In this document: positions 29,403-54,599 of the stretch, piece by piece | Numbering within the stretch: position 1 is the first letter of the stretch | Layout: the number at the start of each line of letters is the position of its first letter | Virus record (IMG/VR): IMGVR_UViG_3300020718_000007 | Span: 84,390-148,389 of that record | Source of the DNA: a virus | Taxonomy: Duplodnaviria > Heunggongvirae > Uroviricota > Caudoviricetes | Direction: 5' to 3' (one strand) | DNA: 64,000 bases | Position numbers and translations under genes: made by a program | The notes under the pieces: model-generated | Databases searched by the model: none | What the model saw: the letters and a program-made list of their open reading frames with translations, nothing else | Told to the model about the DNA's origin: nothing

Positions 29403-29403
29403 T

Positions 29404-32400
29404 ATGGTAACGAAAGATAATTTACTGATTTGCTCTGTTAGGTGGAGCGAAGATTCACCTGGATTTAAGAACGCATTCTATACTCCAATTGAGCAATATA
29501 ATAATACAGGCTTAACCTATAAAATTTTCCAATACGAAAAGGAGCCTGAAATGGAAGCTCTATTTATTCAACGATATGGTTGGTTGGGTGAATATATTTA
29601 TTATAGGGTTTTTAAGTTATACGAATCTTTAAGGAAAGAGATAAAGGAAAATAATTATGACTATATCTTATTTATAGATTATAATGATACTATGTTTGTT
29701 GGTAATGCCAGAGAATTACTAATGAAGCTCAATCAGGTTAAAGCTGCCACCCTTCTGGGTGGAGAAATAACTAAATTTCCAGATGAGAAGATAACAGACC
29801 TTTGGCCAAATCCTATAACATTTGGTGAAGGTCCACATCTAAATGCTGGTATGCTATTTTCTAAATCATTAGACCTATTAATAATACTTAGAGATGCTAA
29901 AGAATTAATCGAAAAGCAACATATCCCATATACTAGTTGTCAAGGAGTATGGCAAATAATGTACCATTCTAATAAGTACGATATTCAAATTGATGAGAAT
30001 AATGAAATATTTTATAATTTGTATGGTAGAGAATTGAATAGGGATTATGGAATAATGAAAAATCATAGATTGGTTGTTTCTAATTCTACGATATGTCCAT
30101 TATTTATACATCAAAATGGTTGGCCCCATACGAGAGGATTAATAGATTTATTTGGTGAACCATTTAAAGAATATAATGAGTCCAGAAAGAAATTATCCTC
30201 CACAAAATTATCCATCGTAACTTCTTATTATAATTGTGAGAAATTCATAGAGGAACAAGCAAAATCTATATTGAGCCAAACATATACTAATTGGGAATGG
30301 ATTATTTGTGACGATTTTTCAACAGATGGTACTAAGAAAAAACTAATAGAGCTTGCTAAATCTGATTCCCGAATTAAATTAGTGGAGCAGAAACACAAGA
30401 AAGAGGTTTGGTGGAATCCACAAATTCATGCAACTGGTTCTATAGTATGTCCGATAGATGGTGATGATAAGATATTACCCAAGACTTTTGAAAAGATAGT
30501 CTATTATTTTAACAAATTTCCTGATATTGTATTACTACATTTCAATGCCAATAAATATAATGATGTCCTTCCACAGAGAAAAGAAGACATTATAGACAAA
30601 TTCCTTGATAATGTTTATATTTCAAGGGACAATATTTCTTTCTTGGATGCTTTTGAAAGGTTATGGCATCAAAGGTCTTGTATTTTTGGATATTTACGTA
30701 TTTTTAGAAATTTACCAGGATTAAATTTCAAAGTTCATCCTGATGGTGATGCCTGTTCGTCTAATGATGGTCAGTGGCTTTTATATTTAGAAGAAAGGGG
30801 AAAATGCTTGGCTATACCCAGAACTACTTATATAGCTAGGAATCATGGAAACTCTGAGAACTATCGAAATTGGAACATTAGGGGTGAGGCTAATCTAGTT
30901 ACTGATACGCAAAAAAGAAGGCAAGGAATGGACCTAGAAATGCCTAGAATCAGTGATTATTTCAATGAGGTATATGTAGCTGCAGAATCTACATATCTGA
31001 GCCAATTGAATTGGGAATCCGAGAGTAAAAAGATTTGTTTCTTTAACTATCAATACTCCGAAAGACAAAAGTTAAAGTTGAAAGAATTGTTCTTCGACCA
31101 TGAAATTTTCTTTGATGGAAATGATAAAATGTATGATTATTGCTTTATTCGGATAAGGCAAGATAGTGTTGAATCCGAGATAATGGAAATAATGGAACGT
31201 GTTTCGGGAAGAGTTAATCTTTATTGTGATAATGTTCATTTGCACCAGAATAATAGAACTGGTAAAAATACGCTCAATGAGATCAGGGATTCATTGGCTA
31301 AGAAATATAATTTCTATTGGAACATTCAAGAGAATAGAGGGATAATCTATGTTTTTGATAGTATTAAAGGAGATAAAATAGATAAGAAGATAATGGATGA
31401 TGTTTTATTAAAAGGGTATGAAGAAACTCCACTAGTAGTTAAAGAAACTAAAGAAGTAGGAAATGAGTGCTTCTTTACTTTTATTGATGGACCAAAAGTA
31501 ACAATCAATGGACCAAAGGATGCTGAATATTTGGTAAAATTTATAGACCTAGATACCCAAAAAGAAGTCTTCACTTCAATAATTAGGAACAACCACTGGA
31601 CAGCATGTTCGGTTAAGTATTGTATGCCTTGGGTGATAGAAGTATATGAAAATAATATCCTCTGGCAAACTCATAAATTTGACCCCAAGGGTAAGAGAGT
31701 CTATATACATTTAGATTCTAATTCTCTCGGGGATACACTTGCATGGGCACCATATGCAGAAGAGTTTAGAAAAAAATGGGATTGTAATGTTATTTTTTCT
31801 ACTCATCGTAACTATTTCTTTGAAGGACAATATCCGGAAATAGAAATGGTTAAACCTGGCACGATTGTTAATAACCTTTATGCAAGTTTTGGCATAGGTT
31901 GGTATTATGATCAAGCAGGTAATGTAGAAAGATATAAAAATCCTTATGATTTTAAAAGCTATCCCCTACAACAGACTGCTACTGATATTCTAAATATGGA
32001 TTTTGAAGAAGTCAAACCAAAACTTAAGATTAAGGATAAAGGTAGAAAAGTTCCTGGTAAAAGGCCATATGTTTGTATAGCTCCCCATGCATCGGCACTA
32101 GCAAAATATTGGAATCTACCGAATGGATGGCAAGGCCTAGTTAATCATTTAAGGAATGAGGGATATGATGTTGTTATGATTACTCAGGAAAAATTGGGTA
32201 ATCCATGGGATGATGGAAAAATAGGTGGAAAACTAACAGGGGTAATAGATAAAACTGGGGATCGCCCATTAGAGGAAAGGATTAATGATATTAAACATGC
32301 CGCTGCTTTTATTGGTGTTGGTAGTGGATTAAGTTGGTTAGCATGGGCAATAGATACCCCAGTATTAATGATTTCAGGATTTAGCGAAGAATGGACAGAG

Positions 32401-32601
32401 TTTACAAAAAATTGTGTTAGAGTAATTAATGAAACTGGTTGTAGAGGATGCTTTAATCGTGCAAGGTTAGATGCTGCAGATTGGAGGTGGTGTCCTGACC
32501 ATAAGGATACGGATAGACAATTTGAATGCACTAAATTAATATCATTGGAACAAGTTATAAATTCATTTAATAAACTAGAAATCAAAAGAAATGAGCAATA
32601 A
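29404..32601 (+). CDS. giant multi-domain glycosyltransferase (GT2 domain plus GT9 heptosyltransferase-like C-terminal domain)
   Basis: GT2 signature LSIVTSYYNCEKFIEEQAKSILSQTYTNWEWIICDDFSTDGT; C-terminal CIAPHASALAKYW...IGVGSGLSWLAWAIDTPVLMISG resembles GT9; 1065 aa. Confidence 0.6.
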   Translation: MVTKDNLLICSVRWSEDSPGFKNAFYTPIEQYNNTGLTYKIFQYEKEPEMEALFIQRYGWLGEYIYYRVFKLYESLRKEIKENNYDYILFIDYNDTMFVGNARELLMKLNQVKAATLLGGEITKFPDEKITDLWPNPITFGEGPHLNAGMLFSKSLDLLIILRDAKELIEKQHIPYTSCQGVWQIMYHSNKYDIQIDENNEIFYNLYGRELNRDYGIMKNHRLVVSNSTICPLFIHQNGWPHTRGLIDLFGEPFKEYNESRKKLSSTKLSIVTSYYNCEKFIEEQAKSILSQTYTNWEWIICDDFSTDGTKKKLIELAKSDSRIKLVEQKHKKEVWWNPQIHATGSIVCPIDGDDKILPKTFEKIVYYFNKFPDIVLLHFNANKYNDVLPQRKEDIIDKFLDNVYISRDNISFLDAFERLWHQRSCIFGYLRIFRNLPGLNFKVHPDGDACSSNDGQWLLYLEERGKCLAIPRTTYIARNHGNSENYRNWNIRGEANLVTDTQKRRQGMDLEMPRISDYFNEVYVAAESTYLSQLNWESESKKICFFNYQYSERQKLKLKELFFDHEIFFDGNDKMYDYCFIRIRQDSVESEIMEIMERVSGRVNLYCDNVHLHQNNRTGKNTLNEIRDSLAKKYNFYWNIQENRGIIYVFDSIKGDKIDKKIMDDVLLKGYEETPLVVKETKEVGNECFFTFIDGPKVTINGPKDAEYLVKFIDLDTQKEVFTSIIRNNHWTACSVKYCMPWVIEVYENNILWQTHKFDPKGKRVYIHLDSNSLGDTLAWAPYAEEFRKKWDCNVIFSTHRNYFFEGQYPEIEMVKPGTIVNNLYASFGIGWYYDQAGNVERYKNPYDFKSYPLQQTATDILNMDFEEVKPKLKIKDKGRKVPGKRPYVCIAPHASALAKYWNLPNGWQGLVNHLRNEGYDVVMITQEKLGNPWDDGKIGGKLTGVIDKTGDRPLEERINDIKHAAAFIGVGSGLSWLAWAIDTPVLMISGFSEEWTEFTKNCVRVINETGCRGCFNRARLDAADWRWCPDHKDTDRQFECTKLISLEQVINSFNKLEIKRNEQ

Positions 32602-35741: not shown

Positions 35742-36992
35742 TTATAATATTTTTAAATTTTCCTTATTATCAAATATCCAAAATTCAAACAATAATCCTT
35801 TATTGATACAAGAATCTCTTTTAATTAAATTTATTTCTAAATTTCTAATAAGTGTAAACTCTGATTTAACTTCTATAACTTTATTATCGGGTATTATATA
35901 AATATCTATTAGATATTGTCTTTCCTTATTCTCGTATTTATCGAAGTATGTAATTTTACCTATTTTATTTCTTATTTCTTTATCTATAATAAGTAAATCT
36001 TCTTCTTTATAAGTTTTTAAAAGGATATCCAGAGCATAATTTTCATACCCTTGTATTTTAACAATTCTACCAGATGGTAATACATAATCTTTATATTTTC
36101 CATGAAATGGATATTCAATACTCCATTTTTCGAGCATAAATTTTATGTGTTCTTTTGATCCTAAATAGGATTTAAATTGATATCTATCCATACAGGTATT
36201 CTCCCTTCTTATTTTAACACCTTCATTAGAAGAAGGATATTCTGTCCCATACTTTAATAATGAGTAATCTTTGAATTTTCTTTTAAATTCCTCTGTTTCT
36301 GTATACCAATCTTTATTATATCTTTCTTTTATTGTATTTGATATTTTTTCTCTAACACTAGGATTTTTAAATTGATGATCAACTCCATACTTTTTTAAGT
36401 TAGTTTCTTTTAATTTATCTTTAAATGCTTGAGATTGTGTTACGTGTTCTACTCCGTATTTTTCTAATGATGTGGATTTTATTTTATCTCTAAATTCTTG
36501 TGTTTGTGAGTAACTTTCTACCCCATACCTTTCCAAATTTAATTTCTTACAATGTTTTTTAAATTCTTTAGATTGAGTATTATACTCAACCCCAATATTT
36601 TTTAAATTAGTTTCTTTAATTTTTTCTTTAATTGTTTCACTTTGATATACATTTTCTACCCCATATCTTTCTAAATTGGTAGTTATGGTTTTAATAGATC
36701 TTTCCGGATGATTAGCTCCACATTTAATTGAACATGTTTTATTATAACCCCATTTATTAGGATTAAATTTTAACTTATTTGTATTGCAGATTGAACAAAT
36801 AGGAGTAGAAAGTAAGTTATTAATTATATGAAATATTCTCTCTGAATATGTTTCATTATCTATTAAATAATTTGTTTCTAATAAAATAAAATTCTGGATT
36901 ACTTTTGAATTTCTTATACTAGCATTCAATGATGATCTACCTTTATTATCTAATATTTTAGTAGCCCAATTTTTTAATTCGCATCTATTCAT
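35742..36992 (-). mobile_element. putative homing-type endonuclease gene (N-terminal Zn finger, four to five ~35-aa tandem repeats, C-terminal PD-(D/E)XK-like motif)
   Basis: the only sizeable minus-strand gene in a + strand block; CSICN...CSIKCG zinc finger; repeats LERYGVENVYQSE / LERYGVESYSQTQ / LEKYGVEHVTQSQ / LKKYGVDHQFKNP; C-terminal IDIYIIPDNKVIEVKSEF (PD...EVK). Confidence 0.4.
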
Positions 36993-37131
36993 AATACTTT
37001 TTTATATTATATTATTTGTTTTAGGAAAGTTCCTATTTATATTGTTGATCCTTATTTTATATATCTGATTAAATTTACATTTTGAAACTTTTTTTTGGTT
37101 TTATCTAAAATATACATAATTTGTAACAAAC

Positions 37132-38931
37132 ATGAAAGAAAACAACAAAGAAATAGAGGTGTTATCGGAGCGGGACCACATCAGGCTCAGACCAACGGTG
37201 TATGTTGGCAGCGTAAGACCTACCGAAGAGAAAATACCAATCATTAAAGACTGTAGAATATTTATAGAGCCAAAGACTATTTCTGTTGGCCTCTATAAAC
37301 TTTTTGATGAGGTGTTTTCCAATTCCTTAGATGAAGCAAAAAGGATGAAAGGTAAGATGAAATCTATAACTGTAAGTATAGATTCCAAAAAGAATTCCGT
37401 TACAGTAAAGGATACTGGTAATGGATTTTATAAGGGTAGTTCAAAAAATAAAGTATCTGGGCTTTCCAATATTGAAACTGCAGTTTCTCAATTAAGAGCA
37501 GGAACAAATTTTAAAAATGGCGAAGTTGAAGAAGCATTAGTTGGAACTAATGGTATGGGAGTAAGTCTTGTTAACGTACTCTCCAGAAAATTTTCAATAG
37601 TAACTACAAACGTTGAACATAAGTATGAACAACATTGGGATGATTACGAAAGGAGAGAGCCAATAATAACAAAGAATGAGGGTAATATTCCATTAGGAAC
37701 AGAGGTTACATTTGAACCTATAACAGATGCAAGTGTTTTTGGTAGGTCTAAATGGGATATGGAAATTATAAAAACCCAGCTTATTTTTAAATTACGCTTA
37801 ATCAAAAAAGATCCGGTTATTAATAATTTAAGTATAGATTTTTATTGGGATGGTATTAAAATACCTCTTGATATTTCTCTATATCCCAAAGGTTCGTTTT
37901 CATTAGAAACACCAATTGGAGAAGTAATTATTTGGGAAAAATATGAAGGTAGCGGTTCTATAAGTTTTGTTAACTCTGCGATGTGTACTGGTATACATCA
38001 AAGGATAGTAAATGAATTTATTAATGCTAAATTGGAAGATAGTTTAGGTCATCACTTTTATGATACCTTTATTTCTTTAAATCTTCAACCTAAACTAGTT
38101 CATTTTGGGGATCAAAATAAGACCAAGTTTATAACACCAAGGGAAGAAGTAGAACCAACTATATCCAGAACGATTCTTAGTAAGTTAGGAGCATTTTTCA
38201 AAACCGAATTATTTGCTTCTATACAAACAAAGGTAGAAGAAAGGAGAACAGAAGGACATGTTAAGAAATTAAGGGCAGAAAAGAGAAAGGTTAATGTTAA
38301 AAATTCTCATAAGTATTTCCCAGCAGGAAAGAATAATGCAGAAAACTTATTTATAGTGGAAGGATTATCAGCGATGGGCTCAATACTTCAAAAGAGGGAT
38401 CCAGATAGAGATGGCATCTATGCACTAAAAGGTAAGATTAAGAATTGTAGGAACCTTGGGGATCTTTCCGAAAACAAGGAAATTTTGGAGCTAATGCAAA
38501 TTCTTAATTTGGATCCTACACTTAAAACAGTCCACAGCATTTCCGGGTATAGAAGGGTGATAATAGCAACAGATGCTGACCCTGATGGTGCACACATTAC
38601 TTCGCTATTGATAAATATGTTCTTTAAATGGTTTCCTGGAGTAATTTCTTATGGTCAATTAAATACCTTAAGGACCCCTCTTGTTTCTGTAGGAGATAAG
38701 GCAAAAAGGAAGTATTTCTTTGAGCTGGATGATTTTAAGAAAGCTAAACCAGCTGGAAATGTTAGATACTTAAAAGGTCTTGGTTCATTGGATATTGCCG
38801 ACTGGGAATATGTAATGGCAAATAAGGATTTAGCAGTAATAACCTATGATCCTAAAGCAAAAGAATATTTGGATATGGCATTCGGAGATTCATCAGATCT
38901 ACGTAAAAAATGGTTAGCAGGTAAAATATAG
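37132..38931 (+). CDS. gp39: DNA topoisomerase II large subunit (GyrB-like ATPase plus toprim; T4 gp39/gp60 equivalents in one gene)
   Basis: GHKL ATPase region; toprim motifs VEGLSAMGS and ATDADPDGAHI. Confidence 0.8.
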   Translation: MKENNKEIEVLSERDHIRLRPTVYVGSVRPTEEKIPIIKDCRIFIEPKTISVGLYKLFDEVFSNSLDEAKRMKGKMKSITVSIDSKKNSVTVKDTGNGFYKGSSKNKVSGLSNIETAVSQLRAGTNFKNGEVEEALVGTNGMGVSLVNVLSRKFSIVTTNVEHKYEQHWDDYERREPIITKNEGNIPLGTEVTFEPITDASVFGRSKWDMEIIKTQLIFKLRLIKKDPVINNLSIDFYWDGIKIPLDISLYPKGSFSLETPIGEVIIWEKYEGSGSISFVNSAMCTGIHQRIVNEFINAKLEDSLGHHFYDTFISLNLQPKLVHFGDQNKTKFITPREEVEPTISRTILSKLGAFFKTELFASIQTKVEERRTEGHVKKLRAEKRKVNVKNSHKYFPAGKNNAENLFIVEGLSAMGSILQKRDPDRDGIYALKGKIKNCRNLGDLSENKEILELMQILNLDPTLKTVHSISGYRRVIIATDADPDGAHITSLLINMFFKWFPGVISYGQLNTLRTPLVSVGDKAKRKYFFELDDFKKAKPAGNVRYLKGLGSLDIADWEYVMANKDLAVITYDPKAKEYLDMAFGDSSDLRKKWLAGKI

Positions 38932-38934
38932 AAT

Positions 38935-39186
38935 ATGAAATGTGTATGTATACAAGCCTCTAGATGGTATAATATTGTAGAATCCCAAAATTTTGGAGGT
39001 GGATCATCTGGAGCATATGAATTTATACCAGGAGAGGTATATGAGGTCGTAATTGAGAGGGATGGGTTTTGGGGTGACTATTATGTGGTTAAAAATCCTC
39101 CACACCAGACATCTTTTGGCGTTAAAGACCATGAAAATACTCCTCCTGGAAGGGCATTTTCTGACTTTTTTCGAATAATAAGTTAG
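38935..39186 (+). CDS. hypothetical protein
   Basis: 83-aa ORF. Confidence 0.3.
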   Translation: MKCVCIQASRWYNIVESQNFGGGSSGAYEFIPGEVYEVVIERDGFWGDYYVVKNPPHQTSFGVKDHENTPPGRAFSDFFRIIS

Positions 39187-39243
39187 AACTATGTTAAATT
39201 CTTTAAACCCACGAAAACAATTGGGGTGGTTGTCATATAAAGA

Positions 39244-40002
39244 ATGACCGATAAATCGAAGATATATAAACAAATGATAACTAGACTATCCGAGTATTTG
39301 TTCGAAGGGGAGGAAGATATAGCAGCCATACCTAGTAAGAAGCTCCATATTAAATGGGCAAAACCTGACTTGGGCGGAGAAATTCTCCATTACGATGCGG
39401 CAGCTAAACTAGAATTCTATCAGCATAACATCGATATTACCAATAAAGATATAGGTAAAGTCGAAGCTAAGTCTACTAAATTCTATAAATACCTATTTAA
39501 GCCCTTCAATAAAGGGGAATTAATAGATTTACCACTTACTTCTTCGGAGGATGAATTCCAAGTTACCAGAATTCAGAACCTGGATTCATACGAATACGAG
39601 AATATTGTAGCAGGAGCATATGGTAGAGGCTATGGTGATATTCTAATAGAAGTTACCAAAGCATTAAAAAAGAATGGTAGTTTAACATTACCAGCACCAA
39701 TTATAATTAGGTTCATCAATTTTGGTGAAACTAGAAGAAGTTCAGAGTCTAGTTACTTTCTATTTTCTGGAAATAGAAGAATTAATCTAGCACTACACTA
39801 TGGAATACCAATTAAAGCGTGGGTAGTGGATTTAATTCCATCTAGAAGAGACGTTAGAGATTTCGCAGAGAAAAATGGAGTACTAAGAAAGGGTGAATCT
39901 TTCTTTAGAGACCTTATACACAAAACTGTTGGAAAGGATAATCTGGAAGAATTAAGTGCCAGGGAACGTTTTAAAATTATACAAGCAATAAAGAACTCTT
40001 AA
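39244..40002 (+). CDS. hypothetical protein
   Basis: 252-aa ORF. Confidence 0.35.
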   Translation: MTDKSKIYKQMITRLSEYLFEGEEDIAAIPSKKLHIKWAKPDLGGEILHYDAAAKLEFYQHNIDITNKDIGKVEAKSTKFYKYLFKPFNKGELIDLPLTSSEDEFQVTRIQNLDSYEYENIVAGAYGRGYGDILIEVTKALKKNGSLTLPAPIIIRFINFGETRRSSESSYFLFSGNRRINLALHYGIPIKAWVVDLIPSRRDVRDFAEKNGVLRKGESFFRDLIHKTVGKDNLEELSARERFKIIQAIKNS

Positions 40003-40012
40003 ACTCAATAAA

Positions 40013-40213
40013 ATGGAAGAGAATAACACGTATCCAAAAAGCTATAGCTTGGATTACGAATTGAAATCTAAAATAGCGTACGAAGCCCTCTGTGAAAATT
40101 ATTCCAAACAACTTATTAATGACTTGATGAGTTATCTTCATATAGAAATAGAGGACCTTGCCGATGAGGAAGTAGTTAAAAAGATTTTAGGACTTTTTAA
40201 AATTAATAATTGA
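40013..40213 (+). CDS. hypothetical protein
   Basis: 66-aa ORF. Confidence 0.3.
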   Translation: MEENNTYPKSYSLDYELKSKIAYEALCENYSKQLINDLMSYLHIEIEDLADEEVVKKILGLFKINN

Positions 40214-40377
40214 TAATTTATGTTTAGTAAATTTTTTAAAGTAATAGGGGAGCTCCTCTATATGGTTGTTCTTTTAACAGGAACAACACTTGTAGTAATA
40301 CTTTCTGGTATATTTGTATTAAGTTTAATGGCAAGGGACAGATTTTATAAGCTCATAGGTAAAAACAAAAAAAAGTA

Positions 40378-41538
40378 ATGGCGGCAGCAACGACTAAAAA
40401 CTACTATACCGCTCTTGGTGTAGAAAAAAATGCTAGTCTAGATGAGATTAAAAAAGCTTATAGAAAATTAGCAATGGAGTTACATCCGGATAGAAATCCT
40501 GGTGATAAAAAATCTGAAGAGAAATTTAAAGAAGTAGCAGAGGCTTATGAAACCTTATCTGATATAGATAAGAAAAGTAAATATGATAAGTCTTGGTCCC
40601 CTGGCTATGGATATGGAACACCACCGTCACCGCCAAAACCAGAATCTCCCTATGACGAATACGTAAGAAGGTCAGGTAAAAGGGAATCATATAATCCAAA
40701 TCCTTTCGGAGGTGGATGGGATGATCCTTTTAGTGATTTTGATACTTTCTTTAATGCCAGAACCTCTAAACAACCACCTCCAAAGAAAAAGAAAGGTCAG
40801 GGAATATCTATTAATATTCCTATAACTGTTGCTGAGATGGTAACTGGTGTACAAAAGAAAATCAAACTGAAACGTAATGTTAAGTGTGGACCATGTAAAG
40901 GTACAGGAGCGCAGGATGGAAAATCATTCCAGAAATGTGGACGTTGCGGTGGATCTGGTTGGGTAAGAAGAATAGAGGATTTTAGTTATGGTGGAAGTGG
41001 AAAACAAACCAGATGTGATCAGTGTAATGGAGAAGGAAAAGTAGTACTTGAATCTTGCCATGTATGTAATGGAGGAAAAACAGAACTAAAAGAGGATATT
41101 ATTGATATCAATATACCAGCAGGTTCTATTGCTGGTATGCAATTTATTATTGCAGGAAAAGGACATGAAGAAAATGGAGCAGCGGAACCAGGAGATTTAA
41201 TAGTTTTTATTAAGGAACTTAATGAAGATGAGTTTATTAGATCTGGAACAAATCTAAGAGTTATACACGAAATACCTTTATTAGATGCTATATTAGGTTG
41301 TAAGATCAAAGTGAAAATGCCAATGGGGGAAATAATACAAACTATTGTAGAGCCTGGTACTACCCATGGAACTATTTTACAATTTCCGGGTAAAGGAATA
41401 CCTGATATAGGTGCAGGAACTAAGGGTGACTTTTTGGTAGAAGTTCGTATTAAAATTCCTATACCAAAAACTAAAGAAGACTATGATTTATTAAGTGACT
41501 TGAAAAAGACTAAATTGTTTGGAAATGATAATGACTAA
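40378..41538 (+). CDS. dnaJ: DnaJ (Hsp40) co-chaperone, type I
   Basis: J domain [35 protein letters not shown] (HPD motif); Gly/Pro-rich linker; four CxxCxGxG Zn-finger repeats ([31 protein letters not shown]); C-terminal substrate-binding domains. Confidence 0.8.
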
Positions 41539-41833
41539 TTTAATTTTATTTATTCTAGCCTCTTGGGGGCTTACCCACATCTTAGTATCCGGTAAAATTT
41601 TCGAAACCCCTCGCAACTGGATCATTATAAAAAACGAATTTCTTGGTGGAATACTTACATGCTATCAATGTACTGGATTTTGGTCTGGTATGTTTATAGC
41701 AGGATGTTTTACAAGAAATTATTTTTACATATTCCTATTAGGTCTTATAGCATCCGGAACATGCTCCTTTCTAAACTCTATCTATGTTGCTATTAGCACC
41801 TATATCAGAAAAAACCAAGATAATATATCTTAA
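41519..41833 (+). CDS. hypothetical integral membrane protein
   Basis: 104 aa with three hydrophobic segments. Confidence 0.35.
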
Positions 41834-41891
41834 AAAATCACAGAAATAAAACCTGTGGTTTATTCTATAATACTTAGAATATCAATCGTTT

Positions 41892-43319
41892 ATGAGCACA
41901 AAGAAAACAATCACAATCCCTGAACAAATCAATCAGGACTATCGAAAGTATGCCTTGTACGTAATACAAAGTAGGGGTATACCAAATTTTTATGACTGTA
42001 TAACTCCTGTACAACGACTCATTTTACAAAATGCACCATCTACGTTTTCAAAAACTCCTGGTGTAATTGGTAGTGTATTTAGTACTGGATTATATCACCA
42101 CGGAGATTCCTCGTTGGCTTCCGCAATTTCTAAGTTGGCTAGACCATTTGGATGTTCGGAACAGATAATGGAGGGTGACGGATTCTTCGGAACTCCAGTA
42201 AATCCTAGACCAGCAAGTGCAAGGTATACCATGGTGAAAATTGTTCCTAAATATAGAAATATGTTAGAGGAATATAAGGATCTAAATATGCCCAATGAAG
42301 AAGGTGGATATGATTGGCTTAATGTAACATATCCGATTGGATTATCAACACATATTGTTGGTATTGCAGTAGGATATAGTTCTAACATCCTTCCAAGAAA
42401 ACAGGAAGAGGTAGAAGCTTATTTACAAGGAGATACTACTAAGAAATTAAAACCTTACTTCAAAGGATTTAGGGGTAAAATATCAAAGATAGAAGGACTT
42501 AAATCTTCCTGGTTAATAGAAGGAGAATTCTCGGTTAATAAGCCAAACAAAACTATTCAAATAATGAGCCTTTCTCCATTAGCTCGTTATGATAGTTTTA
42601 TTACTAAGATAGGTTTACTTCTTGATAATAAAGGTGTAGATTATCGTATAGAGAATAGATCAAAAGATGAAGTAGAAGTAACCATTAAATTAAAATGTTC
42701 CGATACCGAATTTGATGAAATTGCTACTAGAATCCAAAGAGAAACACAAAAAATAGTAACGGAAAATATAGTTTTTGTTAAAGATGGGTTAGTAATGGAA
42801 TATGAAAGTATCCAAGAATACTTAGACCAATTTAGAGTTCATAGAGAAGAAGTTACTTATAAAAGGTTAGTAAAGGATCTTTATTATAATGATAGGGAAT
42901 TAGCATTTCAGGAAGCTAAATTAAAGTTTCTGGTATTCATGCAAGCTAAGAAAAGGCTTAATGATGAAATAATGGAATTTCTAAAGCCTTATGATACCTG
43001 GATAAAATCACGATTGGAAGCTATTACGTTAGTTAAGTTGTCCGAGAAGGAAATAGAAATAACAAAACTAAAGATAGAAGAATTAAAAGCCACTGCTCTT
43101 GAAATTAAGGCAGCTATGAAGAATCAGGCTAATAAATGGGCAGCGATTAAAAAGGCATGGGAACAAGCAGCAAAATCTAAACCTAAACAATCTACTTTAA
43201 TGTTAGAAACAGCAGGTGAGGCTTTTGATGGTATTGAAATTTGGAATCCAGAAGAAGCAATGATACCAGAAGAAGATGAAGCAAGTATTCTTGATGACGA
43301 AGAAGGAATAGAAAACTAA
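41892..43319 (+). CDS. gp52: DNA topoisomerase II medium subunit (GyrA-like breakage-reunion domain), T4 gp52 family
   Basis: active-site Tyr context PASARYTMVKI (GyrA: AMRYTE); winged-helix region ITPVQRLIL. Confidence 0.75.
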   Translation: MSTKKTITIPEQINQDYRKYALYVIQSRGIPNFYDCITPVQRLILQNAPSTFSKTPGVIGSVFSTGLYHHGDSSLASAISKLARPFGCSEQIMEGDGFFGTPVNPRPASARYTMVKIVPKYRNMLEEYKDLNMPNEEGGYDWLNVTYPIGLSTHIVGIAVGYSSNILPRKQEEVEAYLQGDTTKKLKPYFKGFRGKISKIEGLKSSWLIEGEFSVNKPNKTIQIMSLSPLARYDSFITKIGLLLDNKGVDYRIENRSKDEVEVTIKLKCSDTEFDEIATRIQRETQKIVTENIVFVKDGLVMEYESIQEYLDQFRVHREEVTYKRLVKDLYYNDRELAFQEAKLKFLVFMQAKKRLNDEIMEFLKPYDTWIKSRLEAITLVKLSEKEIEITKLKIEELKATALEIKAAMKNQANKWAAIKKAWEQAAKSKPKQSTLMLETAGEAFDGIEIWNPEEAMIPEEDEASILDDEEGIEN

Positions 43320-43346
43320 AACTAAAATAACAAAACAAATTCAGAG

Positions 43347-44117
43347 ATGAAAAATAACGAAACCAAATTGAAATTTAGAATTACTAATTCTGGTAATTTA
43401 ATATCATTCCTAAACAAAATAAAGTCTGTAGACAAATCTGTTATTTTGGAATTAGATGGAACACAATTTTTTGCAAAGGTTAGAACTGCAGATAAATCGG
43501 TTATTAAATATGTTAGTATTGATACTTCAGACTTCATGGAAGGAGAAGTTCCTAAGGGTAGAGTAAAAATCGGAATTATGGAACTCAATAAGATTATTAA
43601 TGCGTTCAAATATTTTGGACCAGAGGAGGAATCTTATATTGAGCTAACAGTAGAACCGGTTGACAAAAATATATTGGCAACTTCTATGAAGATTTTCTCT
43701 AAGTCTATCAAGATTAATATTCGATGTGCTGATATAGACTTACTAACCTACATGGATGATAATATCCAGAAAACAATTCATTCCACAGAAGGATATTTAA
43801 TAGGATTTCCAGTTACCAAGGAAGCCTTTACAAAAATAGTTTCTTTAAGTGGGATGGAAAACAATTCGGAGGAGTTGTTAAATTTTGATGTTTATAGCAA
43901 TAGGCTAGTTGTTAGGGGTAATTCGTTTGAATATAACCTAATAAGGGAGCAAGATATACAAGGCTATAAAGAGGATGGAACTTATACAATTTATAAGAAC
44001 CAGTTTTCCAGTATTGACCAAGAAAATTCTATGTTCTATATCCACGAAAATAGAGTAATAGTTTTATCACAAGAGTCCGAGTCACAAATAGCAATTGGAC
44101 GTGTAGAAATGGAGTAA
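43347..44117 (+). CDS. hypothetical protein, possibly sliding clamp (gp45-like) by position and size
   Basis: 256 aa; sits immediately upstream of the polymerase C-fragment as gp45 sits near gene 43 in T4; only weak N-terminal resemblance. Confidence 0.25.
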   Translation: MKNNETKLKFRITNSGNLISFLNKIKSVDKSVILELDGTQFFAKVRTADKSVIKYVSIDTSDFMEGEVPKGRVKIGIMELNKIINAFKYFGPEEESYIELTVEPVDKNILATSMKIFSKSIKINIRCADIDLLTYMDDNIQKTIHSTEGYLIGFPVTKEAFTKIVSLSGMENNSEELLNFDVYSNRLVVRGNSFEYNLIREQDIQGYKEDGTYTIYKNQFSSIDQENSMFYIHENRVIVLSQESESQIAIGRVEME

Positions 44118-44119
44118 TT

Positions 44120-45286
44120 ATGAATCAAGACTATAATAACCTTTCCATAGAGGAAATTGAAGCAGAAATAGCTAGGTTACAGGCACTTTCTAAAGACTAC
44201 AAAAATGAGGAACAAGGAATTAAATTAACCCTTAACTCAATATATGGAGCGCTTGGAAATCAATGGTTTGCATTATTTAACCTAGAAGTAGCAGAAGCTG
44301 TAACAATGCAAGGCCAGGATCTATGGAAATATGCAGAAAAAATCATTAACAGGTATTTCCACCAACACTGGCACCTGGATACAGAGCTACACGAAAAGTT
44401 AGGACTTAAAAATGTCAAACCAATAACAGTAGATATGGTTATCTACGGAGATACCGATAGTAACTATGTGAATATTGGTGCAGCATTAGATTCCTGTGAT
44501 TTTGAAGGTAATCCTTTGGACTTTGTATTGAAATTAGATGAATATAGGCTAAGGGGCTATATTAAGAAATGTTTGGACTTATATGCAGAAAAATGGAATA
44601 CTCAGAATTATCAGGATTTTGAATTAGAAAGTATTTCCAAAAATGGTATATTTCTTGGTAAAAAGAAAAACGTATTAAATGTTGCATGGGAATCTTCAGG
44701 ACATGACCAATTAGAAGATTTAAGTAAGGTAAAATATACAGGAGTAGAAATGGTAGTCGGCGGAACTGCACCCTTCGCCAGACTTCACTTAAAAAGTCTT
44801 GTAAACCACTTCTTTAAAAGGGGTAAGTCTTTTGACCTTCGGGAATTTGTGAAAATGCTAAGAGTAATCAAGTCGGATTTTAAATTACAAAAACCAGAAG
44901 ATATTTCAGTATCCATGAACGTAAATAATATGGAACAATATATCCTTTGTGATACATCCAGATTTGAAGTGGCTTCTAAATGTCCAATGCACGTAAGAGC
45001 TGCAGGGTATCATAATTTTATCCTAAACAACTCTAAATACAAGCAAAAATACACGCTAATTCGTTCTACAGATAAGATTAAGTTTTATTACGTAAAGGTC
45101 GGTAGCAAGCTCGAAAACAATGTTTTCGGTTATCTTGTAGGGGCTTATCCTTACGAGTATGCTCTGCCAATTGATATGGAGGAACAATTTAATCGTACAA
45201 TTTTGGACCCTATTAATAGGTTTTTAGAAGCTATGGGTTATCCCCCATTGAATTCAAATCTACTATTAGTGCATGCTTTATTTTAA
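44120..45286 (+). CDS. gp43-C: family-B DNA polymerase, C-terminal fragment (motifs B and C plus thumb), T4 gp43-like
   Basis: motif B KLTLNSIYGALGN (T4: KILINSLYGALGN), motif C IYGDTDSNYV; the ORF begins about 35 aa before motif B. Confidence 0.8.
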   Translation: MNQDYNNLSIEEIEAEIARLQALSKDYKNEEQGIKLTLNSIYGALGNQWFALFNLEVAEAVTMQGQDLWKYAEKIINRYFHQHWHLDTELHEKLGLKNVKPITVDMVIYGDTDSNYVNIGAALDSCDFEGNPLDFVLKLDEYRLRGYIKKCLDLYAEKWNTQNYQDFELESISKNGIFLGKKKNVLNVAWESSGHDQLEDLSKVKYTGVEMVVGGTAPFARLHLKSLVNHFFKRGKSFDLREFVKMLRVIKSDFKLQKPEDISVSMNVNNMEQYILCDTSRFEVASKCPMHVRAAGYHNFILNNSKYKQKYTLIRSTDKIKFYYVKVGSKLENNVFGYLVGAYPYEYALPIDMEEQFNRTILDPINRFLEAMGYPPLNSNLLLVHALF

Positions 45287-45297
45287 TGGAATGAAGT

Positions 45298-45310
45298 GGA
45301 TATATAATAC
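45298..45310 (+). promoter_or_regulatory. GGATATATAATAC upstream motif (weaker copy of the recurrent ATATATAAA element)
   Basis: located 24 nt upstream of the ATG at 45334. Confidence 0.2.
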
Positions 45311-48212: not shown

Positions 48213-48285
48213 GGTGAGGTAGCTCAGTTGGTAGAGCGCAGCCCTGAAGAGGCTGGCGTCGGGGGTTCGAGTCCCTCCTTCACCA
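48213..48285 (+). tRNA. tRNA-Phe (anticodon GAA)
   Basis: manual cloverleaf: acceptor GGTGAGG/CTTCACC, D arm GCTC-AGTTGGTA-GAGC, anticodon stem CAGCC/GGCTG with loop CTGAAGA, T arm GGGGG-TTCGAGT-CCCTC. Confidence 0.8.
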
Positions 48286-48326
48286 CTCAAGACGGGAAAA
48301 GTACTGATACCCGCCGTGAACAAAGT

Positions 48327-48345
48327 CCTCGGTTCGTAACCGAGG
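48327..48345 (+). other. inter-tRNA spacer hairpin
   Basis: CCTCGGTT-CGT-AACCGAGG, 8-bp stem. Confidence 0.3.
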
Positions 48346-48351
48346 CAAACT

Positions 48352-48422
48352 ACGGGCGTAGTTCAATGGTAGAATATCGGTCTCCAAAACCGCAGATGGG
48401 GGTTCGAGTCCTTTCGCCCGTG
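48352..48422 (+). tRNA. tRNA-Trp (anticodon CCA)
   Basis: acceptor ACGGGCG/CGCCCGT, anticodon stem CGGT/ACCG with loop CTCCAAA, T arm GGGGG-TTCGAGT-CCTTT. Confidence 0.7.
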
Positions 48423-48430
48423 CCGCGAAA

Positions 48431-48470
48431 CTTTTGCACTTTTCTTGGATATATAGAATAAAACACTATT
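48431..48470 (+). repeat. direct repeat copy 1 (~40 nt, CTTTTGCACTTTTCTTGGATATATAGAATAAAACACTATT) upstream of the GIY-YIG gene
   Basis: near-identical copy at 49769-49809; contains an ATATATAgAATAAAA late-promoter-like core. Confidence 0.7.
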
Positions 48471-49109
48471 ATGCCAAGGGAAAGAAAAGTTTACAAATAT
48501 CATTTTATTTATAAAACTACAAACATTAAGAATGGTAAATTTTATATTGGAATGCACTCCACTGATAACTTAGATGATGGTTATTTAGGAAGTGGAGAAA
48601 AATTAAGAAGTTCTATAAGACATTATGGAAAAGAGAATCATCATAGGGAAATATTAGAATTTTTACCTAATAGGAAAGAATTATCTAATAGAGAAGAGGA
48701 AATAATAAATGAGAAATTTTTGGAAAATCCTCTTTGTTTAAATTTAGCAATTGGAGGCGAAGGATCAGGTGATAGCTTTAATTATGTTAATAGTATCTAT
48801 TGGAAATTACCAGAAAACAAAGAAAGAATTAGCAAATTAGTTAGTGAATTTAATATCAAAAATTGGAATAATTTAGATTCTAATAAAAAGAAGGAGAGAT
48901 TAAAAAATCTTAATTTTTCTAATAAAAGTCATACTAAAGAAGCTAAAGAACAGATAGGTAAGAGTAATTCAATAAAACAAAAAGGAGAGAAAAATTCCCA
49001 ATTTGGTAAAATTTGGATTACTAAAGAAAATGAAGAGAAGAAAATTATCCAATCAGAATTTGAAAATTATTCTAAGATAGGTTGGATAAGAGGAAGAAGG
49101 GGGAGGTAG
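48471..49109 (+). mobile_element. GIY-YIG homing endonuclease gene (copy A) inserted between tRNA genes
   Basis: KYHFIYKTTNIKNGKFYIGMHST...DGYLGSG; the stop codon (49107-49109) lies inside the 5' acceptor/D region of the following tRNA-like gene. Confidence 0.7.
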
Positions 49110-49185
49110 CTCAGTTGGTTAGAGCATGTAATGTTCCGGGATCCTGGACTTACGCCGGTCGCTGGTTCGAGTCCAGCCCTCCCCA
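49100..49185 (+). tRNA. 86-nt tRNA-like gene with canonical acceptor, D and T arms but an 18-nt segment in place of the 7-nt anticodon loop (isotype unassigned)
   Basis: acceptor GGGGAGG/CCTCCCC, D arm GCTC-AGTTGGTTA-GAGC, T arm GCTGG-TTCGAGT-CCAGC; anticodon stem TGTAA/TTACG encloses TGTTCCGGGATCCTGGAC, which folds into a further 4-bp helix with a 9-nt loop; no U33 register available. Confidence 0.4.
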
Positions 49186-49277
49186 CTAGGAAATTGAAGA
49201 TCCAGGTGAGCACTCTTGGTGTGTTTGAAAGAGTAACACAAAGCATGGTTTGCATAATGCGTCAGTTTCCTTAAATC

Positions 49278-49361
49278 GGTAATGTAGCTGAGTTGGTTGC
49301 GAAAGCATATAGCGCTTGGTCTGAAAAACCAGAGACGTCGGTTCGATCCCGATCATTACCA
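49278..49361 (+). tRNA. 84-nt tRNA-like gene with a Phe-type anticodon arm (GAA) and a ~12-nt GNRA-hairpin insertion in the D loop
   Basis: acceptor GGTAATG/CATTACC, anticodon stem TTGGT/ACCAG with loop CTGAAAA, T arm GTCGG-TTCGATC-CCGAT; the D region GCTG-AGTTGGTTGCGAAAGCATA-TAGC contains the mini-hairpin TGC-GAAA-GCA. Confidence 0.4.
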
Positions 49362-49366
49362 CATAT

Positions 49367-49439
49367 TCTCCTTTAGCTCAGTTGGTAGAGTGGAGGCACT
49401 ACAAGCCTTAGGTCGTTGGTTCGAGTCCAGCAGGGAGAA
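49367..49439 (+). tRNA. tRNA with anticodon UAC (Val-like) and noncanonical C33
   Basis: acceptor TCTCCTT/AGGGAGA, anticodon stem GAGGC/GCCTT with loop ACTACAA, T arm GTTGG-TTCGAGT-CCAGC. Confidence 0.5.
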
Positions 49440-49447
49440 CATTAAAA

Positions 49448-49522
49448 GCACCTTTAGCTCAGTTGGTTCAGAGCAACGCCCTTACAAGGCGTGGGTCACT
49501 GGTTCGAATCCAGTAAGGTGCA
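49448..49522 (+). tRNA. tRNA-Val (anticodon UAC)
   Basis: acceptor GCACCTT/AAGGTGC, D arm GCTC-AGTTGGTTCA-GAGC, anticodon stem ACGCC/GGCGT with loop CTTACAA, T arm ACTGG-TTCGAAT-CCAGT. Confidence 0.8.
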
Positions 49523-49528
49523 CAATAA

Positions 49529-49601
49529 GGTCCGGTGGACAAGCGAGCAAGTCGTTTCCCTTTCACGGAAAAGATCACGGGTTTGAATCCCGTCCGGATC
49601 A
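49529..49601 (+). tRNA. tRNA-Glu (anticodon UUC)
   Basis: acceptor GGTCCGG/CCGGATC, anticodon stem TTTCC/GGAAA with loop CTTTCAC, T arm ACGGG-TTTGAAT-CCCGT. Confidence 0.75.
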
Positions 49602-49608
49602 CAAATAA

Positions 49609-49680
49609 CACCCATTGGACAAGTGGTTAAGTCGTCTCCCTTTCACGGAGGAGACAGGGGTTCGAATCCCCTATGGGTGA
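49609..49680 (+). tRNA. tRNA-Glu (anticodon UUC), second divergent copy
   Basis: acceptor CACCCAT/ATGGGTG, anticodon stem TCTCC/GGAGG with loop CTTTCAC, T arm AGGGG-TTCGAAT-CCCCT. Confidence 0.7.
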
Positions 49681-49690
49681 CAATTAAAAA

Positions 49691-49762
49691 GGTACCGTAT
49701 TTCAGCGGTAGAATGGCAGCTTGTCAAGCTGCAGGTCACGGGCTCGAATCCCGTCGGTACCT
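49691..49762 (+). tRNA. tRNA-Asp (anticodon GUC)
   Basis: acceptor GGTACCG/CGGTACC, anticodon stem GCAGC/GCTGC with loop TTGTCAA, T arm ACGGG-CTCGAAT-CCCGT. Confidence 0.75.
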
Positions 49763-49768
49763 CGCTAC

Positions 49769-49809
49769 GATTTCGTACTTTTTCTTGGATATATAGAATA
49801 AAACACTAT
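49769..49809 (+). repeat. direct repeat copy 2 (GATTTCGTACTTTTTCTTGGATATATAGAATAAAACACTAT) upstream of the second GIY-YIG gene
   Basis: matches 48431-48470 with a few substitutions; the homology continues into both ORF starts (ATGCCAAG). Confidence 0.7.
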
Positions 49810-50466
49810 ATGCCAAGAAAAAAACACGAATATCATTATATTTACAAAACTACAAACATCCTAAATAACCGATATTATATAGGAATGCACTCTACCTCTA
49901 ATTTAGAGGATGGGTATTTAGGATCTGGTAGGAGAATAAGGGATTCAATAAATAAGTATGGTAAAGATAATCATATTAAGGAGATTTTGGAATTTTTACC
50001 AAATAGGAAGTTCTTAACTTTACGGGAGGAAGAAATAGTAAATAATGAATTATTAATTGATCCGTTATGTATGAACCTTAGAATAGGAGGAGATCCAGGA
50101 GCTACTGAATGGACGATAGAACAAAGAATATTGGGAGGTAAAAATGGTGGATTTAATACAGCTAAGAGTGAAAAGGAAAATCCGGTAATAGCTAAAAATC
50201 AATGGAATAATAGGTCTTTAATTATGAAAGAATGCCATCGTTTAGGTAAAATAAAATATGATACTTTTACTGGTAAAAAACATAACGAAGAATCTAAGAA
50301 ATTGATAGGAACTAAAAATTCAAATAAACAAAAAGGAATAAAAAATTCTCAATATGGAACAATTTGGATTAACAAAGATGGTATTGATAAAAAAGTAAAA
50401 AAAGAATACTTCTCTAATTATTTAGAAGAAGGATGGGTAAAAGGAAGAAATAAAAAGGTCTTGTAG
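49810..50466 (+). mobile_element. GIY-YIG homing endonuclease gene (copy B, paralog of 48471-49109)
   Basis: EYHYIYKTTNILNNRYYIGMHST...DGYLGSG; same N-terminal and C-terminal architecture as copy A; its stop codon (50464-50466) lies inside the 5' end of the following tRNA-Asp. Confidence 0.7.
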
Positions 50467-50531
50467 GGGAGTTGGCCGTCCCCGTCGCCCTGTCACGGCG
50501 AAGATCGCGGGTTCAAATCCCGTCGAGACCG
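50457..50531 (+). tRNA. tRNA-Asp (anticodon GUC), second divergent copy
   Basis: acceptor GGTCTTG/CGAGACC, D arm GGGG-AGTTGGCCGT-CCCC, anticodon stem TCGCC/GGCGA with loop CTGTCAC, T arm GCGGG-TTCAAAT-CCCGT. Confidence 0.7.
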
Positions 50532-50539
50532 CTAAATTT

Positions 50540-50610
50540 GGAGTGTTAGTTTAATTGGCTCGAATACCCTTGCGATCGGGGGAGATGAGGTTCAAGTCCT
50601 CTACATTCCG
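50540..50610 (+). tRNA. tRNA-like element (good acceptor and T arm; D and anticodon arms do not fold canonically; isotype unassigned)
   Basis: acceptor GGAGTGT/ACATTCC, T arm GAGG-TTCAAGT-CCTC; a possible loop TTGCGAT (GCG) lacks a proper stem. Confidence 0.3.
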
Positions 50611-50840
50611 CAAATAGAGTAGAAATGGCAAAGATTATTTTCCAAAAGAAAAAGGCATAGAAATTATTAGAAGATAAGAAATCTAGATTTTCTCTATTCG
50701 TTAAGAAGAATAACGAATTAAAGACTTTGGGAAGGGACTACATAGAAGGTGAAGTAGAAGAACTATATGTATTTTTCCAAAGCGGAATAGACCCAGAATG
50801 GGAGGGAAGGATGGGGACATTATTATAATAAGGTTAGTCA

Positions 50841-50872
50841 TCGCACGCGTGCGCTCACGCACACGCTCGCAC
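50841..50872 (+). repeat. GC-rich palindromic element TCGCACGCGTGCGCTCACGCACACGCTCGCAC
   Basis: 12-nt perfect palindrome CGCACGCGTGCG plus CGCAC-type repeats in an AT-rich intergenic region 26 nt upstream of the 50899 gene. Confidence 0.5.
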
Positions 50873-50898
50873 TTCTTATTATTATACAAAAATAAAAA

Positions 50899-51498: not shown

Positions 51499-51932
51499 GA
51501 GTGGTCACCTCACTTGCACTGAGGAAAACAGAGGGAATCGTTCTCCCTATTCTCCACCAAAAATAACTCAATATGAGAGAACTAACACCAGAAATACTAA
51601 TTGAATTAGGTTATAAAAGATGGAACAATGGTAGTCCATATAACGTTGGCACTAGGGAAAACAAAAAAGAAAACCGACAAATAAAAAACCAATACAATGG
51701 AACAGAATAAAGGAGGGACCACGCCGGTCGCACAAAAGACCAGAAATTAAAAGAGATTTCTGGTCGTGTAGGAACAAGACACCAGAGGAAACTAAGGAAG
51801 TACTCTGAAGGATTTAATGAGAAATTCCATTTCTTTTTTAAGTCATATCGAACAGGCATTTTAACTTTCTGTGGAGAAGCAGTAGAACCCCAATTCAATA
51901 TTAATGAGGTTAATGCAAAAGAAGGCTTTAGA

Positions 51933-52704: not shown

Positions 52705-52723
52705 CATTAATAAAACAATTTTT

Positions 52724-53047: not shown

Positions 53048-53054
53048 ATATAGC

Positions 53055-54583: not shown

Positions 54584-54599
54584 CAATTATAAACAAACT

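Follow-up and report, generated by a model that had tools for sequence, protein, structure and literature searches.

We analysed a 64,000-nt stretch of one strand of a tailed-phage genome (Caudoviricetes; IMG/VR record IMGVR_UViG_3300020718_000007, positions 84,390 to 148,389; hereafter the window) and focused on a dnaJ-like gene lying between its two topoisomerase II subunit genes. The gene is an ATG-to-TAA open reading frame (ORF) at positions 40378-41538 on the plus strand, with a product of 386 amino acids (aa). Judging from domain content, predicted fold, the ratio of non-synonymous to synonymous substitution rates (dN/dS) and gene order, we consider it likely that this gene encodes a functional class A J-domain co-chaperone, long carried in the replication block of a lineage of large freshwater phages, the hosts of which are probably Bacteroidota. 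The gene and the parts of its product were assigned as follows, with the evidence for each in brackets.

40378-41538, plus strand: dnaJ-like gene for a class A J-domain protein of 386 aa (ORF, Pfam, TIGR02349, 6jzb, AlphaFold2/Foldseek, dN/dS).
40399-40587, plus strand: J domain, residues 8-70 (PF00226; His-Pro-Asp (HPD) codons at 40483-40491).
40588-40806, plus strand: linker, residues 71-143, Pro-rich and Gly-poor, in place of the Gly/Phe-rich (G/F) region (composition, linker alignment, model confidence, dN/dS).
40807-41460, plus strand: C-terminal domains (CTDs) I and II, client-binding β-sandwich domains, residues 144-361 (PF01556, Foldseek).
40885-41079, plus strand: zinc-finger-like region, residues 170-234, with four CxxCxGx[GK] repeats (regular expression, PF00684).
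41473-41505, plus strand: C-terminal helix predicted at residues 366-376, where DnaJ has its dimerisation helix (DSSP on the AlphaFold2 model, TIGR02349).

The initial annotation, made from the sequence alone, had described a full-length type I DnaJ with a complete J domain, a G/P-rich linker, four CxxCxGxG repeats and C-terminal domains, and profile searches bore this description out in all but one detail. The three Pfam families DnaJ, DnaJ_CXXCXGXG and DnaJ_C all scored above their gathering cut-offs of 27.8, 32.7 and 26.6 bits, respectively. DnaJ (PF00226) matched residues 8-70 with 94.1 bits, including the HPD tripeptide at residues 36-38; DnaJ_CXXCXGXG (PF00684) matched residues 170-233 with 44.6 bits, in a region that sits inside CTD I; and DnaJ_C (PF01556) matched residues 144-361 with 116.1 bits, spanning profile positions 2-152 of 152. 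The detail to be amended concerns the zinc-finger repeats, CGPCKGTG (from residue 170), CGRCGGSG (187), CDQCNGEG (213) and CHVCNGGK (227): there are indeed four, with eight of eight cysteines present, but only three are strictly CxxCxGxG, the fourth being CxxCxGxK with lysine in place of glycine. As judged from its sequence, the protein is no J-domain fragment but a class A (type I) DnaJ/Hsp40 of the cellular type, complete in its domains. The J domain aligned without gaps to that of E. coli DnaJ at 56% identity and kept in its sequence both the basic face of helix II (K25, K26, R29 and K30) and the HPD-R-N loop, positions that are known as DnaK contacts from the 5NRO complex.

Comparisons over the whole length of the protein gave a consistent picture. 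The NCBIfam model TIGR02349 (DnaJ_bact) aligned over positions 1-353 of 354 with 309.6 bits, below its curated equivalog cut-off of 377.2 bits, which marks the protein as a complete but diverged DnaJ rather than a straightforward equivalent of the housekeeping DnaJ. The best solved relative in a phmmer search was full-length Streptococcus pneumoniae DnaJ (6jzb; E=1e-49, residues 8-362), and human DNAJA2 and yeast Ydj1 were the next structure matches. An AlphaFold2 model built from a 62-sequence alignment reached a mean predicted local distance difference test score (pLDDT) of 86.8, with low values confined to residues 76-116 of the linker. Foldseek superposed this model on 6jzb with a target-normalised template modelling score (TM-score) of 0.82 and a root-mean-square deviation (r.m.s.d.) of 3.0 Å; the corresponding target-normalised TM-scores were 0.75 for 1nlt (Ydj1) and 0.71 for 7zhs (DNAJA2). 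Taken separately, the J domain of the model matched the DnaK-bound E. coli J domain (5nro_B) with a TM-score of 0.90 and an r.m.s.d. of 1.1 Å. The helix at residues 366-376 is predicted, from its position in the model, to be the dimerisation helix.

The gene is under strong purifying selection. Against its 85%-identical orthologue, dN/dS was 0.081 overall, with values of 0.13 for the J domain, 0.06 for the linker, 0.075 for the CTDs plus zinc finger and 0.10 for the tail. H36, P37, D38 and seven of the zinc-finger cysteines were invariant across the 62-sequence alignment, and the remaining cysteine, C170, was conserved in at least 90% of these sequences.

The part that departs most from cellular DnaJ is the linker. 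Its 73 residues, a disordered stretch, contain 18% Pro, 12% Gly and 7% Phe, as against 25-39% Gly and 0-3% Pro in the linkers of Bacteroidota DnaJ, in which a motif M-[DE]-D-I-F-S-x-F-G-D-I-F is followed by Gly/Phe-rich runs. The linker alignment revealed that the DIF-like core of this motif is kept in the phage protein. Low glycine content is a property of the whole phage DnaJ clade described below (5-17%, with a few members higher), within which the linker is short in one large subclade (37-48 residues), while in the subclade containing the window DnaJ it is long and Pro-rich and includes a private P[YF]DEY[VM]R motif. The linker, too, is under purifying selection (dN/dS = 0.058). In cellular DnaJ, the Gly/Phe-rich region helps to activate DnaK. 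With its DIF-like motif kept in a Pro-rich, Gly-poor setting, the phage protein may tune the Hsp70 cycle differently from cellular DnaJ.

To place the gene in its genomic setting, we compared the surrounding block with related phage contigs. The features that make up this block are given below.

37132-38931, plus strand: topoisomerase II large subunit of the fused gp39+gp60 type, the upstream boundary of the block (Pfam Toprim/HATPase_c; PHROG 543, E=8.5e-101).
38935-40213, plus strand: three conserved ORFs of 83, 252 and 66 aa between the large subunit gene and dnaJ (synteny).
40220-40378, plus strand: hydrophobic ORF of 52 aa (also called as a gene in the contigs L001-L003, L004 and L008).
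41531-41833, plus strand: DUF1360 family membrane protein of ~100 aa (PF07098, 27.2 bits against a cut-off of 21; gene call at 11154-11456 of L001).
41892-43319, plus strand: topoisomerase II small subunit, gp52-like, the downstream boundary (Pfam DNA_topoisoIV, 126 bits; PHROG 551).
43347-45286, plus strand: ORF256, followed by the gene for the C-terminal part of a split family B DNA polymerase (PolB) (Pfam DNA_pol_B, PHROG 1918, synteny).

Six ORFs thus lie between the two topoisomerase II subunit genes, of 83, 252, 66, 52, 386 (DnaJ) and ~100 (DUF1360) aa. The 52-aa ORF and dnaJ share one base, where the stop codon of the former runs into the ATG of the latter (TAATG), and dnaJ in turn shares its last 8 bases with the DUF1360 gene, so that dnaJ and the adjoining genes look co-transcribed and translationally coupled. 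Sixteen syntenic loci were available for comparison, comprising seven contigs (L004-L006 and L008-L011) and nine from IMG/VR. All 16 shared one gene order, namely the large topoisomerase II subunit, an ORF of ~240 aa, in some cases UvdE, an ORF of ~66 aa, DnaJ, a DUF1360-like gene, variable inserts in some, the small subunit, an ORF of 256 aa and the C-terminal part of PolB, over a range of DnaJ identity from 85% down to 32%. Identity to the window DnaJ was 85% (on a 401-kb contig), 55% (453 kb), 54%, 50%, 43% (189 kb), 41% (271 kb) and 41% (122 kb) in L004-L006 and L008-L011, and 32-37% in the nine IMG/VR contigs of 50-290 kb, in which the large topoisomerase II subunit was 53-57% identical. 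A DUF1360 homologue stood directly downstream of dnaJ in 15 of the 16 loci, with no match in L039. We also observed that the DnaJ-DUF1360 pairing is absent from other DnaJ-carrying phage groups.

Within the block, homing endonucleases, inteins and UvdE were gained and lost while dnaJ stayed constant. Across 15 loci, DnaJ identity rose and fell with that of its neighbours, with Spearman coefficients of 0.92 for the large topoisomerase II subunit, 0.88 for the small subunit and 0.98 for the C-terminal part of PolB. This co-divergence, together with the fixed order, argues that dnaJ is an old, vertically inherited member of the block and not a recent insertion. The picture of a gene inserted between the topoisomerase II genes is right about the flanking genes; on the other hand, it passed over the ORFs in between, and the arrangement is ancestral to the lineage. 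The same arrangement, which the initial annotation had proposed to look for in related phages, recurred in every relative that was looked at. As a separate observation, a gene for UvdE (UV damage endonuclease, PF03851) lies between the ~240-aa and ~66-aa ORFs in L004 (6730-7671), L005, L006 and L008-L011 but is absent at 39244-40213 of the window and from its identical copies; its presence in the examined relatives makes this look like a lineage-specific loss.

The window belongs to a huge freshwater phage, the replication genes of which are distantly T4-type. An identical protein with identical flanks was found on a 473,921-bp metagenomic contig in ENA and on two JGI freshwater contigs. The T4 frame in which the gene had first been discussed does not suit this genome: its size exceeds the ~170 kb of T4-like phages in the strict sense (Straboviridae), the large topoisomerase II subunit was only ~28-31% identical to those of T4-like phages, and megablast of positions 37000-45300 against 50,697 phage records returned no match. 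The claim that full DnaJ proteins are rare among phages holds for cultured ones and is overstated for large uncultured phages. Among the same 50,697 records, 26 had a DnaJ match over at least 80% of the protein, mostly Lak and other megaphages, with several bacterial contigs or short fragments resembling contamination; in IMG/VR, at least 533 viral stretches encode DnaJ relatives.

We then asked where the phage DnaJ came from. A search of 5.8 billion proteins was examined through its 120 best matches, of which the first 52 formed a clade with one further sequence (P0070) in 60 of 60 neighbour-joining bootstraps, and the clade members examined were all on syntenic phage contigs. The named cellular proteins among these 120 matches were all from Bacteroidota, at 37-40% identity. 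In 185,579 GTDB species genomes, the best matches were four Bacteroidota metagenome-assembled genomes at 35-37%, with all others at or below 33%. A broader neighbour-joining tree included IMG/VR sequences, GTDB sequences from ~20 taxa, picked by peptide patterns and hence not an unbiased sample, and a Salmonella outgroup. In this tree, the window clade had 99/100 and a deeper syntenic group 87/100 bootstrap support, and the nearest cellular sequences reached on leaving the window clade all belonged to Bacteroidota in 99/100 replicates. The two syntenic groups were united in the best tree with support of only 44/100, so that a single acquisition for the whole syntenic lineage rests mainly on synteny rather than on the tree. 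The sister group of the phage DnaJ clade shifted with taxon sampling, being a GrpE-linked viral group in one sampling and, later, a syntenic IMG/VR group followed by Bacteroidota.

Translation signals in the window pointed in the same direction. A Shine-Dalgarno-like tetramer preceded 5 of the 48 genes, against a background of 17%, and the leaders contained 51% A. Few Shine-Dalgarno motifs and A-rich leaders are the known pattern of Bacteroidota, and this depletion supports the Bacteroidota host inferred from the DnaJ phylogeny. Taken together, the tree and the leaders fit an ancient capture of DnaJ from Bacteroidota by a phage whose present host would also belong to this phylum; the lineage probably consists of large freshwater phages with Bacteroidota hosts.

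On this basis, a working model of the phage protein can be drawn. DnaJ would be made together with the replication genes, and its CTDs and zinc finger would bind non-native or newly made phage proteins. The J domain would dock on an Hsp70 through the HPD motif and the basic face of helix II (K25, K26, R29 and K30), and docking would trigger ATP hydrolysis and so lock the client onto Hsp70. Host DnaK is the most likely Hsp70 partner, given that no Hsp70 gene is present in the part of the genome read for chaperones, which comprises the window and ~10 kb at each end, ~84 of 474 kb (~18%). Pfam gene tables for this part contained no HSP70, GrpE or GroEL, and tblastn with Salmonella DnaK and a phage GrpE found no match in the window or in any syntenic locus. 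The result would be extra, phage-controlled co-chaperone capacity to fold and assemble the very large proteome of a ~470-kb phage, possibly with an added role in remodelling replication complexes. The active remodelling of the host DnaK system suggested in the initial annotation is likewise a putative function.

Several points weigh against reading the protein as a generic co-chaperone of the host DnaK. One is the TIGR02349 score, which stays under the equivalog threshold. The G/F region is largely replaced, so that activity could be changed or narrowed relative to cellular DnaJ. The one phage J-domain protein studied by experiment, Rki of RB43, a relative of T4, is reported to be an ORFan without generic co-chaperone function in vivo or in vitro (Perrody et al. 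2012, PMC3486835), and the sole precedent is thus not a generic co-chaperone. Finally, other large phages cluster DnaK, GrpE and DnaJ, and a phage-encoded DnaK/GrpE partner could lie beyond the ~84 kb read.

The last of these points leads to the alternative that survives best, namely that DnaJ is part of a phage-encoded Hsp70 system, in which its partner DnaK, possibly with GrpE, would be encoded at another site of the 474-kb genome and make the phage largely independent of host chaperones. Both DnaK and DnaJ occur in 8 of 25 moraphages (PMC12619734). On separate IMG/VR viral contigs (L015, 6727-9059; L016-L019, L023, L025, L026 and L053), of up to 385 kb among those checked, DnaK, GrpE and DnaJ lie within a few kb of each other; what these contigs have in common with the window is limited to a few distant genes. 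A scan of IMG/VR with one of their DnaK proteins listed 80 of 155 DnaK relatives (L177-L256) on contigs of up to 508 kb, and closely related DnaK genes (74-83% identical) were found on contigs of 344-508 kb. Complete phage-encoded Hsp70 systems therefore appear widespread in huge aquatic phages, and only ~18% of the present genome was read. Against this, no DnaK or GrpE was found in the 64-kb window, in ~10 kb on either side or within at most 8 kb of dnaJ in the 16 syntenic loci. None of the nine syntenic IMG/VR contigs, four of which measure 208-290 kb, was among the 80 of 155 DnaK contigs listed, which is weak evidence as the scan reaches close DnaK relatives only. Moreover, in lineages with DnaK, dnaJ stands beside it and not in a replication block. 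We regard a phage-encoded Hsp70 system around this DnaJ as unlikely.

Less probable still is a host-takeover or counter-defence factor, which would divert the host DnaK from its normal clients, as Rki does in stabilising the heat-shock sigma factor, or would replace or out-compete the host DnaJ and thereby blind DnaJ-dependent immune sensors such as bNACHT25. Rki provides the model: this phage protein with a J domain binds DnaK and is toxic, and full growth of the phage depends on it (PMC3486835). The moraphage study names counter-defence as one option, citing the DnaJ requirement of bNACHT25 (PMC12619734). The altered linker could also uncouple ATPase stimulation from productive folding. Yet Rki consists of a J domain alone, whereas the window protein keeps its zinc finger and both CTDs (dN/dS ~0.075, invariant cysteines), which a pure DnaK titrator would not need, and according to the gene and family tables the dnaJ block is without defence-related genes.

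A further alternative, to which we give little credence, takes the position of the gene as a clue to its clients: DnaJ would serve specifically to assemble or remodel the replication machinery (topoisomerase II, the split PolB and the intein-containing subunits of relatives), or would have a membrane role with DUF1360. Its site, flanked by the topoisomerase II genes and with the PolB fragment further downstream, is constant from 85% to 32% DnaJ identity, its start and stop codons overlap those of its neighbours, and the DnaJ-DUF1360 pair persists while UvdE, homing endonucleases and inteins turn over. In lambda replication, DnaJ and DnaK release DnaB from lambda P. The phage protein, with its lineage-specific Pro-rich linker, may by some small chance be a non-generic, possibly membrane-associated factor for assembling the replisome or topoisomerase together with DUF1360, a phage-built counterpart of the step for which lambda borrows host DnaJ/DnaK. 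The whole segment from a glycosyltransferase gene to PolB is, however, collinear in all relatives, so that the position of dnaJ may be frozen gene order only; the sequence bears no sign of client specificity, and dnaJ occurs in unrelated contexts in other phage lineages.

That dnaJ is not truly a phage gene but a recent, functionless host capture or misassembled bacterial DNA, as the universality of DnaJ in bacteria and the contaminated look of some 'phage' records with DnaJ (a Salmonella contig, very short records) might suggest, is refuted by the identical protein and flanks in independent assemblies from ENA, JGI and Logan, and has further against it the lack of any relative above 37% identity among the 185,579 GTDB species genomes, the phage genes on both sides of dnaJ (tail fibre, gp32 SSB, primase and PolB), the GC content, which is uniform across dnaJ, a dN/dS of 0.08 and the synteny in 16 phage contigs.

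A class A co-chaperone working with the host DnaK thus remains our preferred reading of the gene, and its neighbours give some further context. The 83-, 252- and 66-aa ORFs upstream had no family match in Pfam or PHROG, and a PDB sequence search with ORF252 returned nothing credible. The DUF1360 protein may be a candidate partner or client of DnaJ. Separately, this small membrane protein carries a CxxC motif. In a PDB sequence search, residues 11-139 of ORF256 matched four archaeal PCNA sliding clamps weakly but consistently (E ~0.7), and ORF256 may be a candidate phage sliding clamp. The ORF (43347-44117) has the right length for a clamp and lies just upstream of the C-terminal PolB gene, which follows it in all relatives. 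PolB itself is encoded by two genes ~19 kb apart, at 23968-25386 (472 aa, with the N-terminal exonuclease and part of the polymerase) and 44120-45286 (388 aa, the C-terminal part), and inteins are present in the PolB and topoisomerase II genes of some relatives (L006 and L009). A DUF7487 gene at 35742-36992, on the minus strand, is among the very few genes of the window on that strand; its homologues in relatives are present, absent or moved between ORF256 and PolB, the behaviour expected of a mobile, homing-endonuclease-like element.

Scans for transcription signals were uninformative. A promoter consensus scan of 36.9-45.4 kb found 26 promoter-like sites against 35.7 in shuffled sequences, the sigma-70 consensus being probably wrong for a Bacteroidota host; a terminator scan of the same region stayed at chance level; and there was no enrichment of the Bacteroidota −7 motif TAnnTTTG ahead of the window genes.

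In the window as a whole, nearly all genes lie on one strand, and the stretch is clearly viral, with genes for a tail fibre with Peptidase_S74, a gp32-type single-stranded DNA-binding protein (SSB), primase, helicases, RNA ligases, dUTPase and very large glycosyltransferases. Two of the latter, adjacent multi-domain genes of 1148 and 1065 aa at 25956-32601 with Glycos_transf_1/2/9, GT_PLOD and Methyltransf_21 domains, are kept in relatives. Fourteen tRNA genes occupy 48213-55017, with small ORFs between them and with Val, Glu, Asp and Trp duplicated; they include an odd call of tRNA-Tyr with anticodon ATA (49278-49362) and a tRNA-Gly (49100-49186) that, at 87 nt, is longer than the other tRNAs. 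At 19155-21818, a DUF2201_N/DUF2201 protein of the metallopeptidase-vWA type (439 aa) adjoins an AAA_5 MoxR-like ATPase (440 aa); PHROGs labels the DUF2201 family 'HNH endonuclease'. Up to ~10 kb past the window end (L014, 13091-18724), we observed genes for a 608-aa Band_7 (SPFH) protein, a protein with a Glu_synthase domain and a PspA/IM30 homologue. Membrane-associated families such as these (Band_7, PspA/IM30) are unusual for a phage.

A very large phage has hundreds of its own proteins to fold and assemble while it dismantles the cell around it, and an Hsp70 co-chaperone of its own is one means of doing this. Here, a complete DnaJ under strong constraint has persisted for very long in a widespread freshwater lineage, at a fixed site of the replication module. 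This long retention, together with the constraint and the fixed place, speaks for a genuine contribution to fitness rather than for a host gene picked up by accident. In addition, the linker variants of the phage clade (Pro-rich, short and Gly-poor) form a natural series for asking what the G/F region does. DnaJ in jumbo and huge phages is already documented (PMC6102473, PMC7824862, PMC12619734), and the locus adds detail to a known phenomenon rather than a new concept; modestly new are the constant place of dnaJ within the replication block, as a pair with DUF1360, and its non-canonical linker.

Compared with bacterial class A DnaJ (E. coli; S. pneumoniae 6jzb), the phage protein has the same order of domains from the J domain to the C-terminal helix. 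It differs from cellular DnaJ in being at most 37-40% identical to any found, in its Pro-rich linker, in the lysine that ends its fourth zinc repeat, and in the location of its gene in a replication block rather than beside grpE or dnaK. Like Rki, it is a phage-encoded protein with an HPD-containing J domain, which in Rki is functional and acts through the host DnaK (PMC3486835); unlike Rki, it has zinc-finger and DnaJ_C domains and thus the full class A architecture.

Among jumbo phages, DnaJ-domain co-chaperones are scattered and are predicted to recruit host HSP70 for folding and assembly (Iyer et al. 2021, PMC7824862); Agrobacterium phage Atu_ph07, for instance, encodes a DnaJ, gp293 (PMC6102473). 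The window also shares its MoxR-vWA pair (19155-21818) with group 2.2 jumbo phages, in which such a chaperone pair has been reported (PMC7824862). The DnaJ proteins of other jumbo phages and megaphages (group 2.2 jumbo phages, Lak, huge phages LR7565xx) are 26-38% identical to the window protein and stand in other genomic contexts; in LR745206, dnaJ and topoisomerase II are ~28 kb apart. This low identity and the different contexts suggest separate DnaJ acquisitions among jumbo phages and megaphages.

The closest parallel is with the moraphages, freshwater jumbo phages of 200-307 kb with predicted Bacteroidota hosts, in which DnaJ is common, DnaK occurs in 8 of 25 and Hsp20 is also found (Perez-Hernandez et al. 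2025, PMC12619734). Compared by published description, the window lineage resembles them in its origin from freshwater metagenomes, its affinity to Bacteroidota and its DnaJ, and it shares with the moraphage core a distant T4-type SSB, a uvsW-type helicase, a dUTPase, several glycosyltransferases and two DNA polymerase orthologous groups. In contrast, the window contig and its close relatives measure 401-474 kb, above the moraphage maximum of 307 kb. Where the moraphage study describes recent transfer from Flavobacteriales, the window DnaJ is old and highly diverged, and a placement of dnaJ between topoisomerase II genes is not mentioned for moraphages (PMC12619734). Set beside the moraphages by description, the window lineage may be either the moraphage lineage itself or a sister with larger genomes.

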